Below are positions 1 to 8,574 of a DNA stretch of 8,574 bases, piece by piece; positions within the stretch are counted from its first letter, which is position 1; the number at the start of each line of letters is the position of its first letter. Under the pieces are notes generated by a model. It saw nothing but the letters and a program-made list of their open reading frames with translations. It was not told the DNA's origin and searched no databases. The stretch covers positions 1 through 8,574 of IMG/VR virus record IMGVR_UViG_2693429733_000011; one strand, given 5' to 3'. Position numbers and translations under genes: made by a program. This stretch comes from a virus (Duplodnaviria > Heunggongvirae > Uroviricota > Caudoviricetes).

Positions 1-21
1 CCTCAAAAACACCATCATACA

Positions 22-276
22 CTAAATCAGTAAGTTGGCAGCATCACCACTGTTCAGGGTGTCATACGGTGTTGCATCCATTGCCAGCACAGCGTCGCGA
101 ACCGGTGCCGGGATAACGCCCGGTGGTGGCTCATAGCGAACAAACTCCCTCCGTGGTTTCTGCCGGACGGAAGCGATCACCTCATCGTTAATTTCCGGTG
201 GCTGTGGTTCAGGTTGTTTGTCCGGTACCGCCGGCGCTGACGGTTCTTTTCGTTTAAACGGCCACATCAGATCCAC
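22..276 (-). CDS. hypothetical small proline-rich phage protein (84 aa) immediately downstream of the terminase large subunit
   Basis: ORF from the supplied track; its ATG at 276 overlaps the terL stop by 10 nt; codon usage looks host-like (CCG, CTG). I recognise no family. A head-tail joining or portal-adjacent gene would normally sit here. Confidence 0.35.
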
Positions 277-1886
277 TCCATAAAGTCATCAGAAATTACG
301 ATGGGCATTTCCATCGGGGCATAAGCAATCATCACAGAATCAGCCAGGTTTGGAGATTTCGTTCCGTCAGGTTGCTTATCCACAAGAATTTTTCCGGTGG
401 CATTTTTTGACCAGGTAGGTTGTGACAGCTCCATCAACAGCCGGTCTTTATTTTCCATTGTGCTGCTGATGGAAATAATCTCATCCGGGTCATACTCCAT
501 ACCCTGTAGTGCACGAAATGTATTGCGGAATAATTTGCGAAGATGCCACCACCCCTGGGCTTTGGCATTGACAAAAAAGTCCTTATTCAGACGAGCCGGT
601 TTACCATTATCACCGGGAACAGCTTCATTTTCAGGATGAAACACGCTCCCGCTGCCCCGGAATGGAGTGGCGGTGATTTGACAGATGCCCTCCGCTTCAC
701 GCAGTTCGTTGATAGCGCGCGCATCACCACGAACGCCAGCACCCAATCCGTCCTCATCAAAGCGAAACTCATCGGCACCAAAGTCATCGCACAGACCAAA
801 AACCTTAACCACAGAGTCATAGATGTCACTCCCCTTACCTGACCACTCCTGTACGTCATTCAGCAGGATGCCATAACGGAGCGAACAGGCGTTTTTATCC
901 CGCCCTTCGTCGGCGACATCCATTGCACCAAGCCGTTGGCCGCCGGGCTGAATGCCCAGTCTGATATGTGCATCAACCGCAGCCTGTACCCATTCTGAGG
1001 GGATCAGGATGCCTTCTGCTGATGCCTGGTAATTAAGATCCAGTTCCTGGGCAACGATGACTGGGTTATCAATTTTCTCGCACTCCTTGTGATACCACTC
1101 ATCGTCTTTACGCGGATCGCTACGCCAGTGAAACGTAAACACCGGGATTTTTCCACTGTGCCGCTTCTGTGCGAAGGGGTTGTTCATGCCGTTAACCGAT
1201 GAGAGATCGATACGACATCGGGTTGTCTGGGAAAGCGCGGCATCAATAAGTAATGGTCGCTGGAGAAAAGCAGCCTCATCCACAAAATAAAGGGTCGTAC
1301 GGTCACCACGACCGATATTATCGCCAGCCTCACCTTTGATAACCGCGCCAGTTTCAGGAAACTCAACACGCATATATGGCGCGTGCTTCTTCTCGCTCCA
1401 CGAACCGCGAAACTCTACAGGTAGAGTTTCCACGAACTTGCGCGCCTTCCAGAACAATGCTTTCGGGTCACCGGTGCTGTCGACGTATTCCTCTTTACGG
1501 GAGCCGAAACCGATAACCATTTCTTTGTTGAAGAGACAAAGCGAGCAGGCCAGTCCGATCGCGGTCCAACTGAGCCCCATTTCACGGGATTTTTCGGTAA
1601 TACCATTCTCCCGATTGCTCCAGCGTTCCATAATCCAGTGGATCCACTCCTCCTGCTTAGGGAAGAGTAAAAACGGAATGGTCACCGGCAGGCCATAATC
1701 AATATTACGCGGGTCCGTTGTCATGCCCCAGTCGATAATGAACTGAGCCGGGTTGGTACGGTAAAACTGTTTTAGTGCAGGCAATATTTCAGGATTCTGG
1801 CGAATGCGCTGTAGGCGTTCCATCCGCCATTCAAAAACCATCTGGTAATCAGGATGTTTAAAATCGAAGGGGAATGGTAACGGCAT
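267..1886 (-). CDS. terL: phage terminase large subunit (539 aa)
   Basis: Size and position directly downstream of a clear terminase small subunit; its start at 1884-1886 lies 2 nt downstream of the terS stop (1889-1891), i.e. the genes are adjacent; acidic C-terminal region consistent with a nuclease domain. Family assignment is by recall of the gene pair's layout, not by search. Confidence 0.7.
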
Positions 1887-1888
1887 AC

Positions 1889-2443
1889 TTAGCCCATCAT
1901 TTTTCTATACACCTCTGCGGCCTGCTCAGGCGTTAATTTGGTAATTTCTGTTCTGACTGGTCCTCCGTCAGCGCCAGTCACTTCATTTTTGACGTTGTCT
2001 TTAAACGCCTGAACAGAAACATGGCGCCCAAGCAACTCAAGGTTTTTAACCTTATCAGGCCATTTGATTTTCTTCAGAAGTGCGGCGCTATCTGCGGATA
2101 CCATCTCCACGACATCCATTCCTGATAGCGTTGTGCGCCATACCTTAGGCCAGTCTTTAATGGGCTTTAGCTCACCGTTTTGCAGGAGAATGTCGAGCAC
2201 ATCCATCTGGTCGATTTCAACCAATCTACGAAGAACATAAGCGGCATCTATACCTACCTCTTCGTTTCGCTCGGCTTTAAGCTCAGCAATGCGCTTTGCG
2301 ATATTAGCTTTTATTAGGTTTTTGCATCCTTGTACGGCGGCAGAATCCTCACTGTAACCCGCCCTGATGGCTGCTTGCGTGGCATTGAGATCTTTCAGGT
2401 ACTCACGGGCAAACAGCTCTTGTTTGTCGGTGAGCTTTGCCAT
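1889..2443 (-). CDS. terS: phage terminase small subunit, Terminase_2/P27-like with N-terminal HTH (184 aa)
   Basis: N-terminus [31 protein letters not shown] matches the hallmark small-terminase HTH motif (KQExFxxEYL...[12 protein letters not shown]); GGAG ribosome-binding site 8 nt upstream of the ATG; immediately precedes terL. Confidence 0.8.
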
Positions 2444-2470
2444 TATTTGTGCTCCGTTTATCCGTTAAAA

Positions 2471-2492
2471 GGGATATCAGTTAAGTTATCCC
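2471..2492 (-). terminator. weak hairpin (GGGATA-N10-TATCCC) followed by a short T-run on the minus strand, upstream of terS
   Basis: Read directly: plus-strand gggatatcagttaagttatccc; minus-strand copy is followed by TTTTAACGG. Stem is only 6 bp and AT-rich, so it may be a weak terminator or attenuator. Confidence 0.2.
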
Positions 2493-2523
2493 GTGTAGGG
2501 TATAAGCCATTATCAAGCCCACC

Positions 2524-2540
2524 AGTAGATGGACTTTGTA
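2524..2540 (-). repeat. copy A of a 17-bp motif (minus strand ACAAAGTCCATCTACTG), upstream of terS
   Basis: Read directly: plus cagtagatggactttgt; 15 of 17 positions identical to the copy at 3543-3559, same orientation. Confidence 0.5.
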
Positions 2541-2566
2541 ATGAAGAGCCGTTGTGAAAGTAGCTC

Positions 2567-2779
2567 TCAGGTTGTCATTTTTTCCCTTTTCTGCCTACCT
2601 GCCCACTGTTTTGCAATGTACAGGCAGTCATCGAAAACTCGGCCTTTTCTGCTGGCTTGTGAACAACGGCGGTAATGCTCCACCGCCATGTCAGCGCCAG
2701 TCATAGCCGCGTTCTGGTCGTACCCAAGCTTTATTAACTCGGTTGTTACATTTTTATGTATGAAATCAATCGGAGTCAT
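2567..2779 (-). CDS. hypothetical small protein (70 aa), translationally coupled to the upstream Rha-like gene
   Basis: ORF from the track; its ATG (2777-2779) overlaps the stop of the upstream gene (2776-2778) in an ATGA arrangement. No family recognised. Confidence 0.4.
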   Translation of the reverse strand: MTPIDFIHKNVTTELIKLGYDQNAAMTGADMAVEHYRRCSQASRKGRVFDDCLYIAKQWAGRQKREKMTT

Positions 2780-3372
2780 GCTGGTTTACCATCAGGGAAA
2801 TCCCCCATGTCACATAGCTTGAACTGAATCAGATCCTTCACAAGCTGCTCAGCCTTTTTAATGGCCTTCTTCTCTTTCTTCCGACGAGTCATGAGAGCGC
2901 TACCTGCTTGACCGTGCATTTCAAATGAGAACTTCTCAGCAGCCGCGACACGGTTTTGCATTTCGCTGATTGCCATATCGGTCAGGCCAGAGAAATCGAG
3001 GAGGTTAATGTCCTTCCCGCCCTCAAGCTCCGTCATGTGGTCATACACCTGCGCCTGAAGCTCATAGCTGTAGCTCATTGCCATGAGGCAAGCTTCACGC
3101 TTGGGAAAATTGCAAATATCCCTCTCCACAACACCACCTGTTCCGTTGATATAGGTATCAGTTGCAAAAAATTTTGCAGCTGCATCCCCGAGGACCCTGG
3201 GTACTTTCTTCATGAAACTGCGGTGTTCGAGTTTGCGATATTTCTTACAGGGGAACGCAAGCCCCTCCGCCTCCGCTTTGGATTTCCGATCAGCATTAAT
3301 GTAATCCACCATCTCAAGACTGCTCATGGTCGGGTATTCGCCAGAAGGAAGAACGGTTAATGATTTGTTCAT
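2776..3372 (-). CDS. putative phage regulatory protein, Rha/antirepressor-like (198 aa)
   Basis: Central segment FATDTYINGTGG...CLMAMSYSYELQ loosely resembles the Rha (ORF6N-type) domain pattern; AGGA ribosome-binding site about 9 nt upstream of the ATG; sits in the moron slot between lysis and packaging genes. Assignment is tentative, by recall only. Confidence 0.35.
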   Translation of the reverse strand: MNKSLTVLPSGEYPTMSSLEMVDYINADRKSKAEAEGLAFPCKKYRKLEHRSFMKKVPRVLGDAAAKFFATDTYINGTGGVVERDICNFPKREACLMAMSYSYELQAQVYDHMTELEGGKDINLLDFSGLTDMAISEMQNRVAAAEKFSFEMHGQAGSALMTRRKKEKKAIKKAEQLVKDLIQFKLCDMGDFPDGKPA

Positions 3373-3513
3373 GTCGGTATTTCCTTTAGAAAGTTGAGCC
3401 TGTTCGCACAGAAAAGCCGTCCCCGAGAGGTCCTCACCTATACGGCAGTTCTCAGGCTCAGCTTTCTGAAAGACTCGGGATTGTTACGCGCTGCGATGCG
3501 CGGTTTACTGCGG

Positions 3514-3541
3514 ACATATAAAAGCCCCGCAAGTGCGAGGC
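3514..3541 (-). terminator. intrinsic terminator downstream of Rz/Rz1 (minus strand)
   Basis: Read directly: minus-strand GCCTCGCACTTGCGGGGC forms a GC-rich stem with one G-U pair, followed by TTTTATAT. Confidence 0.4.
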
Positions 3542-3542
3542 T

Positions 3543-3559
3543 CATTAAATGGACTTTGT
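3543..3559 (-). repeat. copy B of the 17-bp motif (minus strand ACAAAGTCCATTTAATG), between the Rz stop and the terminator
   Basis: Read directly: plus cattaaatggactttgt; 15 of 17 identical to the copy at 2524-2540. Confidence 0.5.
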
Positions 3560-3574
3560 GATTTGCAAAAAAAT

Positions 3575-4042
3575 TTATTTCAGGCACTGAGTCCTGATGT
3601 ACTCCTGAAGCATTCTCAATGCTGTCTGGTCGCTGATGATTCCGTCCCGGATACCGAGAACGTTTCGTCCAGCAACTGGAGAGAGTTCGACGGTGGCATC
3701 ATTGCCCATGCCGGAGGCGCTGGAGGTTTCGGCTGAGGATGGCACAGGGCATTTTCCTTTGACGAGCACCCGACCACCATTATCAAGCTTGCGCCGAAGA
3801 GCATCATTTTCAGCTTTCGCATCAGCTAACTCCTTCGTGTATTTAGCATCGAGTGCATCAGCATCACGCTGGCGCTGCTGCATGTCAGTAATGGTTGCGT
3901 TCGCCAGCTTCAGTTCTCTTGCGTTTTTGTCGCGCTGCTCTTTGTAGGTAATGGCGTTATCACGGTAATGATTAACAGCCCATGACAGGCGGACGATGAT
4001 GCAGATAACCAGAGCGGAGATAATCGCGGTGACTCTGCTCAT
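3575..4042 (-). CDS. Rz: Rz i-spanin (inner-membrane spanin subunit)
   Basis: N-terminus [17 protein letters not shown]...[14 protein letters not shown]...[13 protein letters not shown] closely matches lambda-type Rz as I recall it; the ATG at 4040-4042 overlaps the endolysin stop. The track's start at 4054 is a GTG, 12 nt upstream. Confidence 0.85.
3616..3822 (-). CDS. Rz1: Rz1 o-spanin lipoprotein, embedded in the +1 frame of Rz
   Basis: MRKLKMML...VVGC lipobox followed by a proline-rich stretch ([11 protein letters not shown]), and fully nested inside Rz, as in lambda Rz1. Confidence 0.75.
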
Positions 4043-4529
4043 TGCTGCCCCCACAAACAGACTTCACGCTCAATCTCACGACGGGTCATCAGCCCTTTCC
4101 ATTGCTTACCGCCAGCATATGTCCAGCGACGTAGCTGGTCACATGCGCCTTTGATATCGCCCTGGTTTATTTTGCGAAGAAGCGTCGATGTTCTGAAATT
4201 GCCAGCGCCCACGTTGTAAACGAACGAGTAAAGAGCGCCGCGCGTTGTTTCCGGTATATCGACTTTGATGTACGGGTTAATTTGTCTGGCGACAGTGGCA
4301 AGGTCTTTATTCAGGAGAGCTTTGCATTCTGCTTCGGTATACGTTTTACCNNNNNNNNNNNNNNNNNNNNNNNNNNNNNNNNNNNNNNNNNNNNGATATC
4401 TTTGTATGGTATGTAGCTGACACCTTCCAGACCATCGTTACCACCTGGGCCAGTGATTAACACAGATGCTATAGCAACAGCCCCGCCACCAATAGCAACT
4501 GCAACAGCCTTGCGTAATGATGGCGACAT
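4039..4529 (-). CDS. R: SAR endolysin (phage-21 R-like lysozyme), interrupted by an assembly gap
   Basis: N-terminal Gly/Ala-rich signal-anchor-release domain ([45 protein letters not shown]); after the N-run the in-frame translation resumes [16 protein letters not shown]...[18 protein letters not shown], typical of T4-lysozyme-like phage endolysins. The start overlaps the holin stop and the stop overlaps the Rz start. Confidence 0.85.
4351..4394. other. run of 44 N (assembly gap or masked sequence) inside the endolysin gene
   Basis: Read directly. Both flanks are codon-aligned to the endolysin frame, but 44 is not a multiple of 3, so the true length differs; by recalled homology about 17 codons are missing. 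Confidence 0.95.
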
Positions 4530-4744
4530 TATTCACCTCTCGCAGCCTTACGCTTGTCTTCTCTGATTTTGAAGTACAGATTTGTCAGATAAGTCAGGAA
4601 GCCCAGAACCAGACTCCCCAGTACACCAATCGCAGCCCACTGTGACGGACTGACCTGATCAAGCCACTGTAAAAACCAGTAGCCGGCACTGCCTGCGGAG
4701 GTGCCGTAGGCAATGCCCGTTGAAATTTTGTCCATGGATTTCAT
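4529..4744 (-). CDS. S: class II pinholin, phage-21 S21 / EssD-type (71 aa) with dual-start MKSM motif
   Basis: [71 protein letters not shown] is near-identical to S21/EssD as I recall it; strong ribosome-binding site GGAGGTGA upstream. Confidence 0.9.
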
Positions 4745-4804
4745 AGCCTCACCTCCGCAAATAACGGATGGCGTAGTTTTACACTGAGAAATGAAAGGGA
4801 TTTG

Positions 4805-4828
4805 AAAAGAAAAAACCGCAAAAGCGGG
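4805..4828 (-). terminator. weak terminator-like hairpin (CCGC-TTTT-GCGG) plus long U-run, about 60 nt upstream of the holin start
   Basis: Read directly: minus-strand CGCCCGCTTTTGCGGTTTTTTCTTTTC. The stem is only 4-5 bp, so termination strength is uncertain. Confidence 0.3.
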
Positions 4829-4904
4829 CGAAACGATATATACAGTAAGGAAAGCACTCTATCCAACAAACCACTCACAGTTAATCGGAATAAAAGCAGA
4901 GTGC

Positions 4905-4977
4905 TTATGAATGATCGCCTGCCCGAAGGTTAGTATTTCTGCACAGCAATTTTGCAAAAAAAAGCGATCATTCATAA
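4905..4977. repeat. perfect 14-bp inverted repeat (TTATGAATGATCGC / GCGATCATTCATAA) separated by 45 nt
   Basis: Read directly at 4905-4918 and 4964-4977; lies in the non-coding slot between the tRNA array and the holin. Confidence 0.8.
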
Positions 4978-5036
4978 CTTAAACGTCTTTCAGTCACTCC
5001 GGGATTTCCCATCATCGCAGACTGAAAGACTCTAAC

Positions 5037-5111
<75 letters not shown>

Positions 5112-5114
5112 ATA

Positions 5115-5189
<75 letters not shown>

Positions 5190-5191
5190 AC

Positions 5192-5268
5192 TGGACCGCC
5201 ACCGGGGACTCGAACCTCGCACACTCAACTTAAAGGGTTGACGCTCTTTCCTGATGAGCTAGTGGCGG
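5192..5268 (-). tRNA. tRNA-like gene, anticodon UUU (Lys) by position, with non-canonical features
   Basis: Acceptor CCGCCAC/GTGGCGG, D-arm GCTC/GAGC, anticodon stem TCAAC/GTTGA with loop CCTTTAA (C at position 33 instead of U), T-loop TTCGAGT with one A-C mismatch in the T-stem, CCA encoded. Confidence 0.45.
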
Positions 5269-5269
5269 T

Positions 5270-5345
5270 TGGTGGCCCTTGCTGGATTTGAACCAGCGAC
5301 CTGGCGATTATGAGTCGCTCGCTCTCACCACTGAGCTAAAGGGCC
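5270..5345 (-). tRNA. tRNA with CAU anticodon, most like ileX-type tRNA-Ile2 (lysidine), alternatively elongator tRNA-Met
   Basis: Acceptor GGCCCTT/AAGGGCC, anticodon loop CTCATAA, T-loop TTCAAAT; high similarity to E. coli ileX as I recall it. CCA encoded. Confidence 0.75.
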
Positions 5346-5450
5346 GGGCGCAGGATAATAACGTTACGAAATCAATGTTGCAAGCATTCAAAAATCACCC
5401 TTATCTCCTCCACCAGCGCATTCACCATGTCTATCCGGGATAAGTGGCAC

Positions 5451-5480
5451 AAAAAACCCGCTTGTGGGCGGGTTTTGTTT
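5451..5480 (-). terminator. intrinsic terminator (bidirectional hairpin), candidate tR'-like late terminator downstream of the Q-like gene
   Basis: Read directly: minus-strand AAAACCCGCCCACAAGCGGGTTTTTTGTG; the stem CCCGC/GCGGG is flanked by an A-run and a T-run, so it could terminate on either strand. Confidence 0.6.
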
Positions 5481-5527
5481 GCTTTTGCCATCACGTACAA
5501 AATCGGCAAAATATCAGATTTGCATGA

Positions 5528-5556
5528 AATATATGCCTTTCAATCTACTTTTGCAA
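5528..5556 (-). promoter_or_regulatory. sigma70 promoter, candidate late promoter (pR'-like), overlapping the 3' end of the Q-like gene
   Basis: Read directly on the minus strand: -35 TTGCAA (5556-5551), 17-nt spacer, -10 TATATT (5533-5528). The predicted start near 5521 would give a transcript of about 70 nt ending at the terminator at 5451-5480, analogous to the lambda 6S / pR'-tR' unit. Confidence 0.45.
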
Positions 5557-6234
5557 CACTTTGCTTTGAAAATGCCGTCTTTTTTTTGAACGTGTTCTCA
5601 TTACAAACAATAAAGCCTCACTATCCAGTCGGTGAAAAATGTGTTTCATTGCAACCCAGTGACGAGTAAATGTTTTGGACCAGTTTTTAGTTGTCACTCC
5701 CGCCAGTAATGCCAGCTCCTGGTATTCATAACCTTCCCCACCAAAAAGTTCTGCTTTTACTGCCTGCGCCGCCAGCCAGATTAATTTTTTCAGGCGTTCC
5801 TGCGTTTTCCCTGCAATTTTTCTGGTACCGGATTGAGCATTAAATTCATTCCACGCCCACTGTGTTATCGCGATCTGATATTCCCAACAAATACTCCCGC
5901 TGTAACACCACAACAACCAGGCTTTATGATGTTCTTCAAGAGACAGAACAGCCCGCCGCCACGATGATGTCGAAAACCCAACCGGACTGACCAGAGGAAT
6001 TGACGTCCCCTTCGCCAGCGATTGCTTTCCCGGGATTGGTGGATTATCCCGCGTTATCATTTTTCCAGTCACTTCATCGCGGTACCGGATTTTTTTACGC
6101 CTGTAACGCCCTGTATCGAACATGGCATTCTCTTGCCAGGCTTCAAGCTGACCTTTTGTTGCCCCACTCAAATCAGCGGTGGCGATAATGAGCTGCTCAC
6201 GCACAAACTGTAAATACTGGTTATTCATGCGCAC
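5545..6234 (-). CDS. putative late-gene antiterminator, Q-like (229 aa)
   Basis: Call rests on synteny only: directly downstream of rusA and directly upstream of a promoter plus terminator, a tRNA array and the lysis cassette. I do not recognise the sequence as lambda Q. Confidence 0.4.
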   Translation of the reverse strand: MRMNNQYLQFVREQLIIATADLSGATKGQLEAWQENAMFDTGRYRRKKIRYRDEVTGKMITRDNPPIPGKQSLAKGTSIPLVSPVGFSTSSWRRAVLSLEEHHKAWLLWCYSGSICWEYQIAITQWAWNEFNAQSGTRKIAGKTQERLKKLIWLAAQAVKAELFGGEGYEYQELALLAGVTTKNWSKTFTRHWVAMKHIFHRLDSEALLFVMRTRSKKRRHFQSKVLQK

Positions 6235-6590
6235 CCCAGTTCTGTGATTTTTATCCCCAGCCGCCCACCAGGAACGAGCTGACCGCGCACAATATTGATT
6301 TCATCAAACTGCTCGTCGTCTATAAGTAGTCCAGCATGCGTCAGCGCATCCAGCGGTGCCTTCAGGATATTGTCCAGGTCACGACGGCGCTTATCCGGTG
6401 GCTCTGCAATAATCTTTATCGCCAGCCTTCCGGACAGGTTTAATTTCAGTCGCTGCTGGCGAACAATTAGCGCCACATCACGGCGATAACGCTTTCCGGC
6501 TTCCGAGATGAAATACGTATTGCCATGACGTCGCCAGTAGGTATTCACCGTCGGCGGGTAAGGCAAAACAAATTCTATGCGTTCAGTCAT
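6225..6590 (-). CDS. rusA: RusA-family Holliday junction resolvase (121 aa)
   Basis: Motifs LPYPPTVNTYWRR, DKRRRDLDNILKAPLDAL and GGRLGIKITE match the RusA signature (PPSxNxYYR ... DRRRRDLDN ... DAL ... GGRL). Confidence 0.85.
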   Translation of the reverse strand: MTERIEFVLPYPPTVNTYWRRHGNTYFISEAGKRYRRDVALIVRQQRLKLNLSGRLAIKIIAEPPDKRRRDLDNILKAPLDALTHAGLLIDDEQFDEINIVRGQLVPGGRLGIKITELGCA

Positions 6591-7649
6591 TCATGCTTTC
6601 CACTTCAGGACACCCGAATTTCTCGCGTGCATTAAAAAACGAATCAGCAACAACAGCTGGCTGCCGTGTTTTTCTTCAAAATCTTTTACCCCGGCGTGCA
6701 GTTCGTTATGACATTTACGGCACAGCGGAATAACAAACAAATCATCAGCCTTTGTTCCCATCCCTCCCAGTCCATGACCAATGATGTGATGCGGATCATC
6801 TGCCTGATTGCCACACGTCATGCATTTCTGCGTTTTTACCCAGCGCGTGTATACGGGCATCTCTTCCCGTTGTGGTTTCTGGCGCTGGAGATACTGAGCC
6901 GGAGAATCCGGATCAACGGCAATGCTGACCACCGTCTTTTCCTGTGGTGGATTCTGTTGCTGGTGGGCGTGAGGCAACGGCGCAATATTTTTTGTGCGCT
7001 GCTTCAGTATGCTGGTGGCGGTCTGCGCTCCCGGTACGATATCGCTTTCGCGGTATACTGAGCGGATTTTTTCTACCGGTAATCCCAGCGAACGACGTAA
7101 TACTGCCTCCGGTAGCGCGTCCGCCACCTGATTGCAGAGCGCCCACCAGGATAATTCAGCCAGCGATAATTCCCGCTCCTGTGTGCCATTCATTGCATGG
7201 CGTATGACGTCAATCATCCATGCTGACAGGTTTTGATGAGCAAGTTGCCCGAGTGATTCGGAGGTCTGGTCACGCAGCTGGTTGTCGCAGTGCCAGCACA
7301 ACACCATCGCACCGGTACCATAACGATGTATGACGATTTCGCTGTGATGATAGTCACCATGAGGCCACTGGCAGGATTTAACGTGGCGTAACAGCCAGTC
7401 AGACAGTGCACCAGCACCGCCAGCAGCACGAATCACACGCTCATCGCTGAAAAATGGCAGTAATGATTTGTCCTCCGCCAGCGGCTGGCGAACGGCAGGA
7501 ACGACCCCGGACGGCAGATTACGCATGCTTTTCGGTTCCGGCTCCACCAGTACCCGGGTATTGTGGAATACCGGCATGGATTCACGGCCCGGCTTAACGA
7601 TCACCAGCCCGAGTTCCGGTACCAGAACAGGTCGAAGTAATACCCGCAC
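6591..7649 (-). CDS. prophage nin-region protein with a C-terminal HNH-type zinc-finger motif (DUF968/YdfU-like, 352 aa)
   Basis: C-terminus CMTCGNQADDPHHIIGHGLGG...LCRKCHNELH shows a CxxC...HH...CxxCHxxLH arrangement; a second Cys/His cluster (CQWPHGDYHH...CWHCDN) lies further upstream; sits immediately upstream of rusA as DUF968 genes do in lambdoid prophages. The likely start is GTG at 7649 with a GGAGG site upstream; an ATG at 7577 is the alternative. Confidence 0.5.
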   Translation of the reverse strand: MRVLLRPVLVPELGLVIVKPGRESMPVFHNTRVLVEPEPKSMRNLPSGVVPAVRQPLAEDKSLLPFFSDERVIRAAGGAGALSDWLLRHVKSCQWPHGDYHHSEIVIHRYGTGAMVLCWHCDNQLRDQTSESLGQLAHQNLSAWMIDVIRHAMNGTQERELSLAELSWWALCNQVADALPEAVLRRSLGLPVEKIRSVYRESDIVPGAQTATSILKQRTKNIAPLPHAHQQQNPPQEKTVVSIAVDPDSPAQYLQRQKPQREEMPVYTRWVKTQKCMTCGNQADDPHHIIGHGLGGMGTKADDLFVIPLCRKCHNELHAGVKDFEEKHGSQLLLLIRFLMHARNSGVLKWKA

Positions 7650-7650
7650 G

Positions 7651-7929
7651 TTACCTCCAGATGCGTTGCTGGAATGTGCGGGACGGACGCGGTGGGCGTT
7701 CAGAGTAAGGAAGCCTGACGGAGATTATCCAGTGACGATAATCGAGGCTGAGGGCTTTCTTAATCTCGTATCCGTGTCTGCGGTAGCACTGAATTAGCCA
7801 CTCGGCCTGTTCTTCAGTGCATGGGTCATGCTGGAACCAGTCAGATTTGAAAGTGCGGGAACGCCGCCCGTGCCTGCTGGCAAAGACGGCAGAATCATCA
7901 GAATTGTGTAATTTGGTATCGTGCGCCAT
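7651..7929 (-). CDS. hypothetical nin-region protein (about 92 aa from the ATG at 7929; the track's 110-aa version starts at a TTG)
   Basis: ORF ends 1 nt before the DUF968 start (operon-like packing); no family recognised. Confidence 0.35.
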   Translation of the reverse strand: MAHDTKLHNSDDSAVFASRHGRRSRTFKSDWFQHDPCTEEQAEWLIQCYRRHGYEIKKALSLDYRHWIISVRLPYSERPPRPSRTFQQRIWR

Positions 7930-7998
7930 CGGTTGTCTCTGCTGGCGCAGCAGGTGCCAGTTGTTCAGGCTGGCGTGCGGCAATATTGTCTCTGATTT

Positions 7999-8029
7999 CT
8001 GTTGTCGTCAACAGGCAGCGTGCTATCAT
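7999..8029 (+). promoter_or_regulatory. putative parDE promoter with an overlapping palindromic operator
   Basis: Read directly: inverted repeat CTGTTG-tcgt-CAACAG (7999-8014) overlaps a -35-like TTGTCG; -10-like TATCAT at 8024-8029; parD ATG at 8065 is preceded by a GAGG ribosome-binding site. Confidence 0.3.
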
Positions 8030-8064
8030 CGAATAGTGTTCTATCCTACTCCTTGAGGTTTACC

Positions 8065-8322
8065 ATGCGTACAACCCAACAATTCAGCATTACATTAACT
8101 AACGAGATGGCTGACATGGTGCGCGCCCGTGTGGCTTCCGGTGCCTATGCTTCAGAAAGCGAGGTCATTCGTGAAGGGCTTCGCGCACTGAATGAGCGCG
8201 ATAAAGCAATCGAAGCGTGGTTAACGCATTCAGCCGCCCCCTCTCTTGATTCTATCCGCGAAAATCCAAACAACGGACGCTCCATTTCACAGGTTCGCGC
8301 CGCGATTCGATCCGGAAAGTAA
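8065..8322 (+). CDS. parD: ParD-family type II antitoxin (ribbon-helix-helix, 85 aa)
   Basis: SITLTNEMADMVRARVASGAYASESEVIREGLRAL matches the ParD (COG3609) signature (SxxLTxx...SGxYxSASEVxRxxLRxL); GAGG 6 nt upstream of the ATG. The track ORF 8002-8322 contains it with an upstream extension. Confidence 0.8.
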   Translation: MRTTQQFSITLTNEMADMVRARVASGAYASESEVIREGLRALNERDKAIEAWLTHSAAPSLDSIRENPNNGRSISQVRAAIRSGK

Positions 8323-8327
8323 TCTGC

Positions 8328-8574
8328 ATGACATATGAAGTCATCATTACTCCTGAGGCCGAACAACAAATAATCAACCTGCACAGATATATAACTGAGA
8401 AAGCAGGGAACGTCATTGCTGACAATTATGCCAATGCACTTCTTGATTATCTTGATGGGTTTTCTACATTCCCGCATCGGGGCAATAAACGCGATGATAT
8501 TCGCCAGGGGATGCGGGTAACTCATTTCCGCCACAGAACGATTATTGCTTTTGCCGTTGATGACAATAAAGTTT
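8328..8574 (+). CDS. parE: ParE/RelE-family toxin, 3' end truncated by the window edge (82 aa visible)
   Basis: My translation from the ATG at 8328: MTYEVIITPEAEQQIINLHRYITEKAGNVIADNYANALLDYLDGFSTFPHRGNKRDDIRQGMRVTHFRHRTIIAFAVDDNKV; starts 5 nt after the parD stop, the typical antitoxin-toxin order and spacing. Absent from the track because no stop codon falls inside the window. Confidence 0.75.
   Translation, partial: MTYEVIITPEAEQQIINLHRYITEKAGNVIADNYANALLDYLDGFSTFPHRGNKRDDIRQGMRVTHFRHRTIIAFAVDDNKV

Follow-up and report, generated by a model that had tools for sequence, protein, structure and literature searches.

The closest described counterparts of the locus analysed here are ParDE1 of C. 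crescentus (3KXE) and ParDE3 of M. opportunistum (5CEG/6X0A), in which, as here, a ribbon-helix-helix antitoxin is encoded directly upstream of a ParE-fold toxin of about 100 amino acids, together with V. cholerae ParDE2 (7R5A) and M. tuberculosis ParDE1 (8C24), which have the same gene order and the same folds. VcParDE2 is autoregulated via an operator at its promoter (PMC10776004). ParE-type toxins paired with DNA-binding antitoxins are likewise carried by prophages such as CP4So of Shewanella, where ParESO-CopASO serves maintenance of the excised prophage (PMC8706911), and Pf4 of Pseudomonas, where PfiT-PfiA controls phage production and immunity (PMC7264888). Among lambdoid prophages of E. 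coli, CP-933P of O157:H7 carries a ParE-fold toxin in the PaaR2-PaaA2-ParE2 system (5CZF/5CW7; TM about 0.8). Qin of K-12 carries relBE-hokD between its replication/immunity region and DUF968 (ydfU)-Q; relBE is, like the present module, a type II toxin-antitoxin system of the RelE/ParE superfamily with a ribbon-helix-helix antitoxin, and RelE is an mRNase.

The window considered here is the whole 8,574-nt stretch of DNA that was analysed, taken from a caudoviricete record in IMG/VR (IMGVR_UViG_2693429733_000011, positions 1 to 8,574), and the locus lies at its end, at 7930-8574. Judged from sequence, it is probably a working type II toxin-antitoxin operon of the ParD-ParE kind, which a lambdoid prophage resembling Rac and Qin carries as a moron. 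All supported phage genes of the window are on the - strand, namely the terminase genes, Rz, lysozyme, holin and four tRNAs, followed by Q (5545-6234), rusA (6225-6590), the DUF968 gene (6591-7649) and a 92-aa open reading frame next to parD (7651-7929), whereas parD and parE are on the + strand. The original prediction that the toxin-antitoxin genes run antisense to every phage gene therefore agrees with the strands of all of them. The sole match of the 92-aa product is PHROG 1212, of unknown function, and it falls in no Pfam or NCBIfam family; its identification as the Rem protein of Qin was considered and rejected, as BLASTP gives no alignment.

The parD-parE pair and its products

The antitoxin gene, parD, occupies 8065-8322 of the + strand including the stop codon (ATG at 8065, stop at 8320-8322), is preceded by GAGG at 8055-8058 and encodes an 85-aa ribbon-helix-helix protein with the sequence of RefSeq WP_001260977.1, an accession under which the same translation is annotated in two relatives (L003 and L005). 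The stop codon is separated by 5 nt from the ATG of parE at 8328, while nine relatives have stop/start overlaps at this point (-1 or -4, of the ATGA type). The toxin gene, also on the + strand, is cut by the end of the window at 8574 after its first 82 codons. The HMM searches proposed with the original prediction exceed every cut-off: ParD scores 32.1 bits against Pfam PF03693 (cut-off 21), in a match that spans residues 6-51 only, and 53.8 bits against TIGR02606 (curated cut-off 46.2), and the score against PF05016 (cut-off 23) is 33.1 bits for the 82-aa ParE fragment and 38.4 bits for a full-length relative. A search of NCBIfam with the ParE fragment gave no match.

When compared with the PDB, the ParD family profile matches solved ParD antitoxins exclusively (7ycv, 6x0a, 3kxe, 7b22, 5ceg and 8c24), about six or seven of them and with the ribbon-helix-helix part aligned, and the whole length of the protein is covered by its match to PHROG 6494 ("antitoxin"; E 1.7e-56). 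Its single-sequence AF2 model, which describes a single chain while the ribbon itself requires a dimer, has residues 1-12 extended, helices at 13-24 and 31-55 with pLDDT above 88, and a C-terminus of low confidence (pLDDT about 55); as modelled, ParD appears to consist of an N-terminal ribbon-helix-helix domain and a disordered or flexible C-terminal tail. The N-terminal residues R2, T4, Q6, S8, T10 and L11 are invariant in the enteric and distant clades.

For the toxin, a single-sequence search of the PDB gave a marginal match to 6x0a (E 0.29) and spurious matches to CheC, so that a profile search was needed. The best matches of the ParE family profile are ParE toxins, 6x0a (2e-6) and then 7ycs, 5ceg and 8c24, and its seven PDB matches comprise six ParE toxins and one RelE/StbE (E 0.18). 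Fold was compared using the AF2 model of a 92%-identical homologue, P0001 (pLDDT 86), in place of the truncated window protein. The best PDB matches of this model are ParE toxins (TM 0.78-0.84) and its top 23 are all toxins of ParD/ParE-type systems (TM 0.72-0.84), with RelE and YoeB starting at rank 24 at a TM of about 0.6 and at most 0.64. By modelled fold the toxin thus appears to belong to the ParE branch rather than to RelE/YoeB, with an identity of 12-22% to any characterised ParE among the structural matches. Curated HMM cut-offs, profile matches and fold comparison together bear out the original assignment of a ParD-type ribbon-helix-helix antitoxin with a ParE-type toxin.

The truncation of parE at the window end had left its integrity in doubt, and extension past 8574 is provided by an IMG/VR contig (L038) that matches the window at 99.97% identity across 3247 nt and letter for letter across 7930-8574. 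The parE reading frame of this contig is intact and encodes 103 aa, which by identity would place the end of the gene at about 8639; in a further sequence, H1, which is 99.9% identical, parE is likewise intact at 103 aa. The two genes are tightly linked and under strong purifying selection (dN/dS 0.05-0.09 for parD and 0.07-0.16 for parE, 0.05-0.16 overall). The pair is an ordinary one, already annotated as a toxin-antitoxin system by RefSeq, by PHROGs and in GenBank under Stx2a phage ArgO145; searching the literature with the protein accessions and with ArgO145 turned up no paper that discusses it. It has little weight as a discovery, since identical proteins are already annotated ParD/ParE and both belong to PHROG families (6494 and 5232) of the category "moron".

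A cassette gained and lost as a unit

The cassette is present in some homologous prophages and absent from others, in which the slot holds hok/sok or relBE. In two prophages without parDE (L007 and L008), hokD is in the slot and the alignment to the window breaks off at 7979; homology to prophages lacking the pair ends at 7979-7980 (a junction without strand), and the cassette comes and goes as a whole, with its left junction at about 7980. It is found in 365 of 5426 complete E. coli genomes (about 7%, STEC prophages included), on the chromosome every time; no plasmid carriage was seen among these genomes, and the single close match labelled as a plasmid is a 1.4-Mb record. None of the complete E. 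coli genomes covers at least 80% of the whole window, and the prophage that carries it is a mosaic. Prophages of Yersinia and Salmonella have the cassette in other slots, and Stx2a phage ArgO145 carries it too. That it is a moron, as had been proposed, is supported by its presence and absence in homologous prophages with a sharp junction, by its occurrence in several phage slots and by its own predicted promoter; the terminator that a moron should carry was not seen, a simple scan 3' of parE in L038, which may miss such a site, having found none that resembles an intrinsic terminator.

In L038 the intact parE is followed by a convergent PstI-like restriction-modification pair (endonuclease and N6-methylase), and in the prophage of the window the cassette most likely runs on in the same way, into a 103-aa parE and then the convergent pair. 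Rac/Qin-like prophages seem to exchange addiction and defence genes in the slot between the replication genes and DUF968/Q, where hok/sok, relBE, parDE and PstI-like restriction-modification genes are all seen.

Promoters and candidate operators

Transcription of parDE, antisense to the phage early-right operon, would start from a TG-extended -10 promoter of its own (TG-c-TATCAT, 8021-8029 on the + strand, with TATCAT at 8024-8029), which is indicated by promoter scan and conservation and has a predicted transcription start near 8036. The pattern TGCTAnnnT is retained in 14 of 14 enteric-clade representatives although synonymous divergence is saturated, and within the extended -10 the mean pairwise identity reaches 0.81, compared with 0.47 for the third codon positions of parD. 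The promoter scan also gives a candidate -35, TTGTCG (8002-8007, + strand), with a 16-nt spacer to the -10. In relatives with a 4-nt insertion (L024, L027, L116, L029, L031 and L036) the -35/-10 spacing is 20 nt, from which it follows that the -35 is probably dispensable given the TG-extended -10. The promoter-like region noticed originally can accordingly be narrowed to a predicted promoter with a conserved core.

The most conserved non-coding stretch, bar the Shine-Dalgarno sequence, is the 17-bp block ATAGTGTTCTATCCTAC at 8033-8049 (+ strand), which has a mean pairwise identity of 0.86, is unique within the window and overlaps the predicted transcription start. Distant relatives from Paraburkholderia, Pantoea, Winslowiella and Polynucleobacter carry a 17-bp perfect palindrome, GTAGGATTnAATCCTAC, which overlaps their -10 (TAGGAT). 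The block is in register with this palindrome and is a degenerate homologue of it, half-preserved in the window, where 5 of the 8 positions are kept in the left half and 7 of the 8 in the right. Conservation and homology make 8033-8049 a likelier ParD operator than the palindrome at 7999-8014 discussed below, and the block could instead be a 5'-UTR element. A concrete candidate operator and a predicted promoter are what the comparative analysis yields for this otherwise ordinary pair.

A second promoter, pointing the other way, is predicted at 7982-8011 on the - strand, with a -35 TTGACG at 8011-8006, an 18-nt spacer and a -10 AATATT at 7987-7982, and faces the 92-aa open reading frame. It is of the isrK/C4 type. 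In eight distinct relatives isrK, C4 and an antirepressor gene adjoin parD divergently (Rfam RF01394 and RF01695 RNAs), so that like promoter, RNAs and antirepressor are found as in P1 immI (C4 RNA-icd-ant) and in the isrK-orf45-anrP locus of Gifsy-1, the operon of which is driven by PisrK (PMC4825925). One relative (L034) has the same element (TTGACG-18-TATATT) ending 7 nt ahead of the 5' end of its Rfam isrK match, and when the 60-nt upstream flanks of 11 isrK copies are aligned, the window sequence falls in register with them. Compared with Gifsy-1 and P1 immI, the window keeps the -35/-10 pair, with the -10 changed from TATATT to AATATT, whereas RNA genes and antirepressor are missing: Rfam finds no match at 7600-8574 with E up to 10, isrK and C4 being absent, and the antirepressor gene served by this promoter in relatives is absent from the window. 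What is left would be a vestigial promoter, now without its genes, that travels with the cassette in relatives. A tRNA remnant had also been considered upstream of parD, as GGTTCGAATCCCG in Salmonella and Yersinia relatives resembled a tRNA 3' end; ARAGORN found no tRNA, and the reading was dropped because Rfam identifies the sequence as isrK and C4 RNA on the opposite strand. It is conceivable, if decidedly speculative, that parDE and the isrK/C4-antirepressor operon divergent from it together make up a single composite mobile element with a shared control region of about 90 bp, tying the toxin-antitoxin pair to an antirepressor-based induction switch; a literature search found no link between the two modules. 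If this were true, the orphaned promoter would give the 92-aa frame, DUF968, RusA and Q a repressor-independent entry point.

The two promoters bear on the inverted repeat CTGTTG-TCGT-CAACAG at 7999-8014 (no strand; found by repeat scan), which overlaps the candidate parD -35 and had been put forward as a palindrome suited to autoregulation. The repeat is there as described; its role as the autoregulatory site is not supported, given the loss of its symmetry in relatives, its compatibility with chance, its absence from two relatives and the better conservation of another block. Dinucleotide shuffling of the 135-nt intergenic region yields a perfect inverted repeat of this kind (arms of 6 or more, spacer no longer than 10) in 17% of cases, and shuffling of its 85-nt cassette-specific part does so in 10% (P about 0.10-0.17); the intergenic stretch itself holds a second such repeat at 7939-7953. 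The repeat is perfect only in E. coli and one Salmonella relative (L009). Other relatives have CAATAG, CAATAC, CAACAC, CAACTG, CAACAA or CAAGCA as their right arm, never with a compensating change in the left; mean pairwise identity falls to 0.34 in the outer bases of the right arm, lower than at synonymous sites (0.47), and is 0.71 in the left arm. The whole block is missing from L033 and L035, both of which keep the parD promoter and 8033-8049. Its arms hold the TTG of two back-to-back -35 hexamers, TTGTCG of parD and TTGACG of the isrK/C4-type promoter, and it is this placement that would account for the palindrome, which is more likely to represent two overlapping -35 elements than an operator; an eye-catching palindrome can be the by-product of such an arrangement. 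That ParD or ParD-ParE nonetheless represses from 7999-8014, alone or as one of several sites, by occluding the -35 is improbable. In its favour, the repeat is real and positioned over the candidate -35, does not vary among some 45 distinct upstream sequences from E. coli and is moderately conserved in its left arm, spacer and inner right arm (0.71-0.75), and the ParE-family PfiAT complex offers a precedent of a palindromic operator overlapping the -35 (PMC7264888), on the strength of which 7999-8014 may be a second, lineage-specific operator. Besides the uncompensated changes, the chance frequency and the two relatives without the repeat, it has against it that TTGACG, its conserved core, serves the divergent isrK promoter as -35 and that distant relatives with the same DNA-reading residues in ParD use a different palindrome.

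Probable role and relation to known systems

Family knowledge suggests how the operon would work: ParD dimers would contact DNA with their N-terminal ribbon-helix-helix and their flexible C-terminal part would wrap around ParE, ParD or the ParD-ParE complex would repress the operon and, once synthesis stops, labile ParD would be degraded and ParE would poison DNA gyrase. On the comparative data, the operator in this scheme would be the 17-bp block over the transcription start and not 7999-8014. Gyrase is suggested as the target by family membership, and some ParE-fold toxins among the structural matches, PrpT and PfiT (9W3A), have other or unclear effects. The most likely role, to which we would give an even chance, is to stabilise the prophage, or just its variable cargo region, in the manner of an addiction module.

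Other explanations differ in how much of this they would change. Least of all to be expected is a decaying remnant with parE broken beyond the window: the window does stop inside parE, pseudogenised copies exist in several relatives (L019, L021, L023, L025, L026, P0011 and P0012) and PA8 of O157:H7 has an orphan parD, yet parE is intact in both L038 and H1 and purifying selection is strong. A main selected function in anti-phage abortive infection, with the adjacent restriction-modification genes as a small defence island, is unlikely but deserves consideration. The convergent PstI-like pair in a prophage identical to the window over the module, the fact that the 103-aa parE allele is the sole allele linked to that pair, and the carriage of other toxin-antitoxin systems (hok/sok, relBE) by the same slot in related prophages all speak for it. 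However, neither ParD nor full-length ParE nor the 92-aa neighbour matches any PADLOC-DB defence model, and 73 of 73 copies with the 99-aa allele have no restriction-modification neighbour. It is doubtful, too, that the toxin has a ParE fold and acts otherwise than on gyrase, as a RelE-like ribosome-dependent mRNase in the manner of Qin relBE or on some other target. PF05016 and the RefSeq name span the whole RelE/ParE superfamily, RelE and YoeB structures are still detectable as matches, identity to characterised ParE proteins is low and the ParE fragment hits no specific NCBIfam model; against this stand the ranking of ParD/ParE-type toxins ahead of RelE/YoeB in the fold comparison, the six ParE toxins among the seven profile matches, and a partner that is a ParD-type ribbon-helix-helix antitoxin and not RelB. 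The preferred reading is still that of a working ParD-ParE toxin-antitoxin module.

Relative to the solved ParD-ParE complexes, such a module is distinguished by a toxin identity of 12-22%, by an antitoxin C-terminus unrelated in sequence and by its carriage on a phage. By analogy with VcParDE2, it is expected to regulate itself through a promoter operator, whose putative motif, TAG..CCTAC, taken from GTAGGATTnAATCCTAC, differs from the three GGTA boxes of VcParD2 (PMC10776004). ParESO-CopASO and PfiT-PfiA differ from it in antitoxin family, phage type and host, and the present module is known from sequence. The PaaR2-PaaA2-ParE2 system reportedly has three components, with a small antitoxin, PaaA2, that is not of the ribbon-helix-helix type and a separate regulator, PaaR2, whereas parDE consists of two genes in the classical manner, its ParD being of the DNA-binding type. 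The likeness to Qin relBE that was originally pointed out holds for the position in the slot and fails for the arrangement: the order in K-12 is ydfU(DUF968)-rem-hokD-relE-relB, with rem and hokD in between and relBE co-directional with ydfU, whereas parDE is divergent from the DUF968 gene.

Layout of the window and identity of the pair

The window covers the right-hand part of a lambdoid prophage of Rac/Qin-like type, in reverse reading direction, and all of its supported phage genes lie on the minus strand: the terminase large (267-1886) and small (1889-2443) subunits, Rz, lysozyme, holin, four tRNAs (5040-5345), antiterminator Q (5545-6234), RusA (6225-6590), DUF968 (6591-7649) and a 92-aa ORF (7651-7929). 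The lysozyme gene is broken by a run of masked or unknown bases (N) at ~4351-4394, with ~15 X in the ORF translations, and BLAST alignments with the related locus L001 break there (4350/4395). The tRNA genes, located between Q and the holin gene, are annotated in relatives as Ile, Lys or Arg, Thr, and Gly. The most that one complete E. coli genome covers of the window at one place is 61%, and its packaging/lysis half matches other prophages than its Q-DUF968-parDE half does; the element is therefore a mosaic.

On the plus strand, parD (8065-8322; 85 aa) is preceded by GAGG at 8055-8058, and parE begins at 8328, 5 nt past the parD stop, with 82 codons before the window ends. Both ORFs, and an inverted repeat ahead of them, were found where the original prediction had placed them, and together they form an operon of two genes, antisense to phage early-right transcription and with a conserved predicted promoter of their own. 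ParD matches Pfam PF03693 (32.1 bits; cut-off 21) and TIGR02606 (53.8 bits; cut-off 46.2), the family match being confined to residues 6-51, the ribbon-helix-helix (RHH) domain, while the ParE fragment scores 33.1 bits and a full-length relative 38.4 bits against PF05016 (cut-off 23). Family alignments took in enteric relatives and ~50%-identical relatives in Paraburkholderia, Pantoea, Polynucleobacter, Desulfovibrio and others. The PDB matches of the ParE profile (6x0a, 2e-6; 7ycs, 5ceg, 8c24, 3kxe, 6xrw) and of the ParD profile (7ycv, 6x0a, 3kxe, 7ycs, 7b22, 5ceg, 8c24) are all components of solved ParD-ParE complexes, apart from a single RelE/StbE entry for ParE (E 0.18). In the AlphaFold model of P0001, a homologous ParE 92% identical to that of the window (pLDDT 86), the topology is beta-alpha-alpha-beta-beta-beta, and the best 23 structural matches are ParE-type toxins (TM 0.72-0.84), with RelE/YoeB-type mRNases appearing only from rank 24 (TM ~0.6). 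A single-sequence model of the window ParD has an extended N-terminus, confident helices at 13-24 and 31-55, and a low-confidence C-terminus, the arrangement expected of an RHH antitoxin whose toxin-binding tail is disordered. Purifying selection acts strongly on both genes (dN/dS, where dS is unsaturated, 0.05-0.09 for parD and 0.07-0.16 for parE). By every feature that could be tested the pair is a member of the ParD/ParE family, with gyrase inhibition, neutralisation and operator binding as putative activities.

An intact 103-aa parE is present in L038, an IMG/VR contig with one mismatch in 3247 nt to window 5328-8574 and exact identity over 7930-8574, and in E. coli FDAARGOS_943 (99.9% identical over 7600-8574), where it has one amino acid difference (D32G). 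In L038 and the relatives L001, L004 and L039, parE is followed by two genes convergent to it that encode a BsuBI/PstI-family endonuclease (360 aa) and an N6-adenine methylase (610 aa; L038 3353-6264, L001 13081-15992, L004 8079-10990, all minus strand). Among the fetched loci, this restriction-modification pair occurs only after the E. coli 103-aa parE allele or its 122-aa read-through (L037), at 5 loci, and follows the 99-aa allele in none of the 73 copies with enough downstream sequence.

The parD promoter and its candidate operator

The 120 nt 5′ of parD were aligned for 14 enteric-clade representatives, in which synonymous sites are largely saturated; third positions of parD codons (mean pairwise identity 0.47) served as background. 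Against this background, mean pairwise identity is 0.93 for the Shine-Dalgarno sequence, 0.81 for a TG-extended -10 (TGCTAnnnT, 8021-8029) and 0.86 for a 17-bp block, ATAGTGTTCTATCCTAC (8033-8049), that overlaps the predicted transcription start near 8036. In the ~50%-identical relatives, the corresponding position, counted from the start codon, is taken by a perfect palindrome, GTAGGATT-n-AATCCTAC, present once per locus; its left half, TAGGAT, serves as the -10 of a promoter whose spacer measures 17 nt. Forms intermediate between this palindrome and the window block are found in three relatives (L020, ATAGTATTGAATCCTAC; L036, ATAGTATTTAATCCTAC; L116, GTAGTATTCAATCCTAC), and residues R2, T4, Q6, S8, T10 and L11 of the N-terminal DNA-reading ribbon of ParD are invariant in both clades. 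Because of the distant palindrome, the intermediate forms and these invariant residues, 8033-8049 is the likeliest candidate for the ParD operator.

The original prediction had instead regarded the inverted repeat CTGTTG-TCGT-CAACAG at 7999-8014 as suited to autoregulation. Several observations argue against this repeat as the operator: a perfect inverted repeat of the same size arises in 10-17% of shuffles, and only E. coli and a single Salmonella locus have this one in perfect form. In the other relatives its right arm is CAATAG, CAATAC, CAACAC, CAACTG, CAACAA or CAAGCA, changes that the left arm does not mirror; the three outer bases of the right arm, with an identity of 0.34, fall under the synonymous background; and the whole block is missing from the relatives L033 and L035, which retain the promoter and the 8033-8049 block.

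The conserved core of the palindrome also has another explanation, which likewise speaks against a role as the operator. In 8 distinct relatives, including Stx2a phage ArgO145, the strand opposite to parD has Rfam matches to the isrK sRNA and the C4 antisense RNA, immediately next to parD and divergent from it (L034 3461-3647, L009 3462-3648, L029 3456-3643 and L055 2466-2648, all minus strand; L024, L036, L108 and L116), and antirepressor genes (ORF6N, P22_AR_N, 'anti-repressor') follow. The toxin-antitoxin pair and this P1-immI/Gifsy-1-isrK-like switch seem to travel together. The minus-strand promoter of L034, TTGACG-18 nt-TATATT, ends 7 nt ahead of the 5′ end of the isrK match. The same pair of elements stands in register in the window (TTGACG 8011-8006 and AATATT 7987-7982, minus strand), from which the isrK/C4 RNA genes are absent; isrK copies not adjoining parDE have TTGAC and the -10 in common, not the spacer. 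Since the window TTGACG is in register with the isrK -35 of relatives, the palindrome can be read as the TTG of the parD -35 (TTGTCG, plus strand) and that of a vestigial isrK -35 (TTGACG, minus strand), placed back-to-back, together with three flanking bases, which drift freely on one side. It is conceivable that ParD also binds the palindrome in the E. coli lineage, given that the ParE-family PfiAT system uses a palindrome overlying its -35 (PMC7264888); two back-to-back -35 elements are the preferred reading.

The orphaned isrK-type promoter (7982-8011, minus strand; TTGACG-18-AATATT), with its -10 changed from TATATT to AATATT, faces the 92-aa ORF, DUF968, RusA and Q. High transcription of IsrK has been reported in Gifsy-1 lysogens (PMC7067206), so any residual activity of this promoter in the window could matter.

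Distribution of the cassette and its insertion slots

Cassette DNA (8020-8574) occurs in 365 of 5426 complete E. coli genomes and is chromosomal in every case. Two close prophages without parDE, L007 and L008, have hokD in the slot upstream of the 92-aa ORF/DUF968 gene, and their homology to the window stops at 7979, within the intergenic region; the cassette is acquired and lost as a unit. The slot is an exchange site for addiction modules: prophages lacking parDE have hokD (with sok) there, L006 has hokD beside parDE, and K-12 Qin has hokD-relE-relB (L007 10941-11096; L008 9313-9468; L006 8548-8703; L002 7120-7873). Just upstream of the 92-aa ORF, prophages without parDE also carry a hairpin rich in GC, CCCGCCGAAGCGGG, that has a minus-strand T-run (L007 ~10160-10200; L008 ~9200-9240) and resembles a terminator of early-right transcription; in the window, the parDE cassette stands in its place.

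Relatives of the pair within the enteric clade occupy other phage slots, almost always antisense to the neighbouring genes. Yersinia prophages (L029, L030) have the pair in their early-left region, and the Salmonella loci L031 and L032 have it just past Q; in other lambdoids (L033, L034) it takes up the same slot, between replication and nin-region genes. L035 carries it in a Rac-like early-left region, L036 within a tail-gene cluster, and L027 (Enterobacter) on an integrase/IS66 island. In L036 (3738-5848; Yersinia mollaretii), parDE is co-oriented with the tail-gene cluster, and next come another ParD-family gene and a toxin of the YafO family. In L118 (3546-4523; the Stx-phage-like early-left region of E. 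coli O157:H7 PA8), a parD homologue without parE after it is followed by a 90-aa ORF without Pfam family and a HigA-family HTH antitoxin, an arrangement suggestive of an orphan parD or of an exchanged toxin.

Putative role and relation to known systems

By analogy with established ParDE systems, e.g., VcParDE2 (PMC10776004) and ParESO-CopASO (PMC8706911), ParD dimers would occupy the operator and repress the operon together with ParE, and the ParD C-terminus would fold onto ParE and neutralise it; upon loss of synthesis, ParE would be freed to poison DNA gyrase. Addiction-type stabilisation of the prophage or its variable cargo has about an even chance of being the role of the pair. Abortive-infection defence, for which no PADLOC defence model matches, is considerably less probable, and the remaining probability falls to a purely selfish passenger.

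Among phages deposited as complete genomes, the pair is found in ArgO145, whose annotation already names the two genes as toxin and antitoxin, and in two other Stx2a-converting phages. The pair is already known, since identical proteins have been annotated in GenBank, in RefSeq (as ParD and RelE/ParE) and in PHROGs (as 'moron' families 6494 and 5232); a literature search found no papers characterising this phage-borne ParDE subfamily. What is new here is modest: a different site is proposed as the probable operator, the palindrome is read as a pair of back-to-back -35 elements, and this parDE lineage is repeatedly linked with the isrK/C4-antirepressor module, of which the window retains the promoter only.

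The corresponding slot of K-12 Qin contains rem-hokD-relE-relB, adjoining ydfU (DUF968). The analogy drawn earlier with Qin relBE holds for position, but not for orientation, relBE being co-directional with ydfU, nor for adjacency, as rem and hokD intervene; the toxins also belong to different branches. Comparison with Qin Rem ruled out the 92-aa ORF as a Rem homologue. The PaaR2-PaaA2-ParE2 system of O157 prophage CP-933P is likewise unlike the window pair, having a different antitoxin and a separate regulator.
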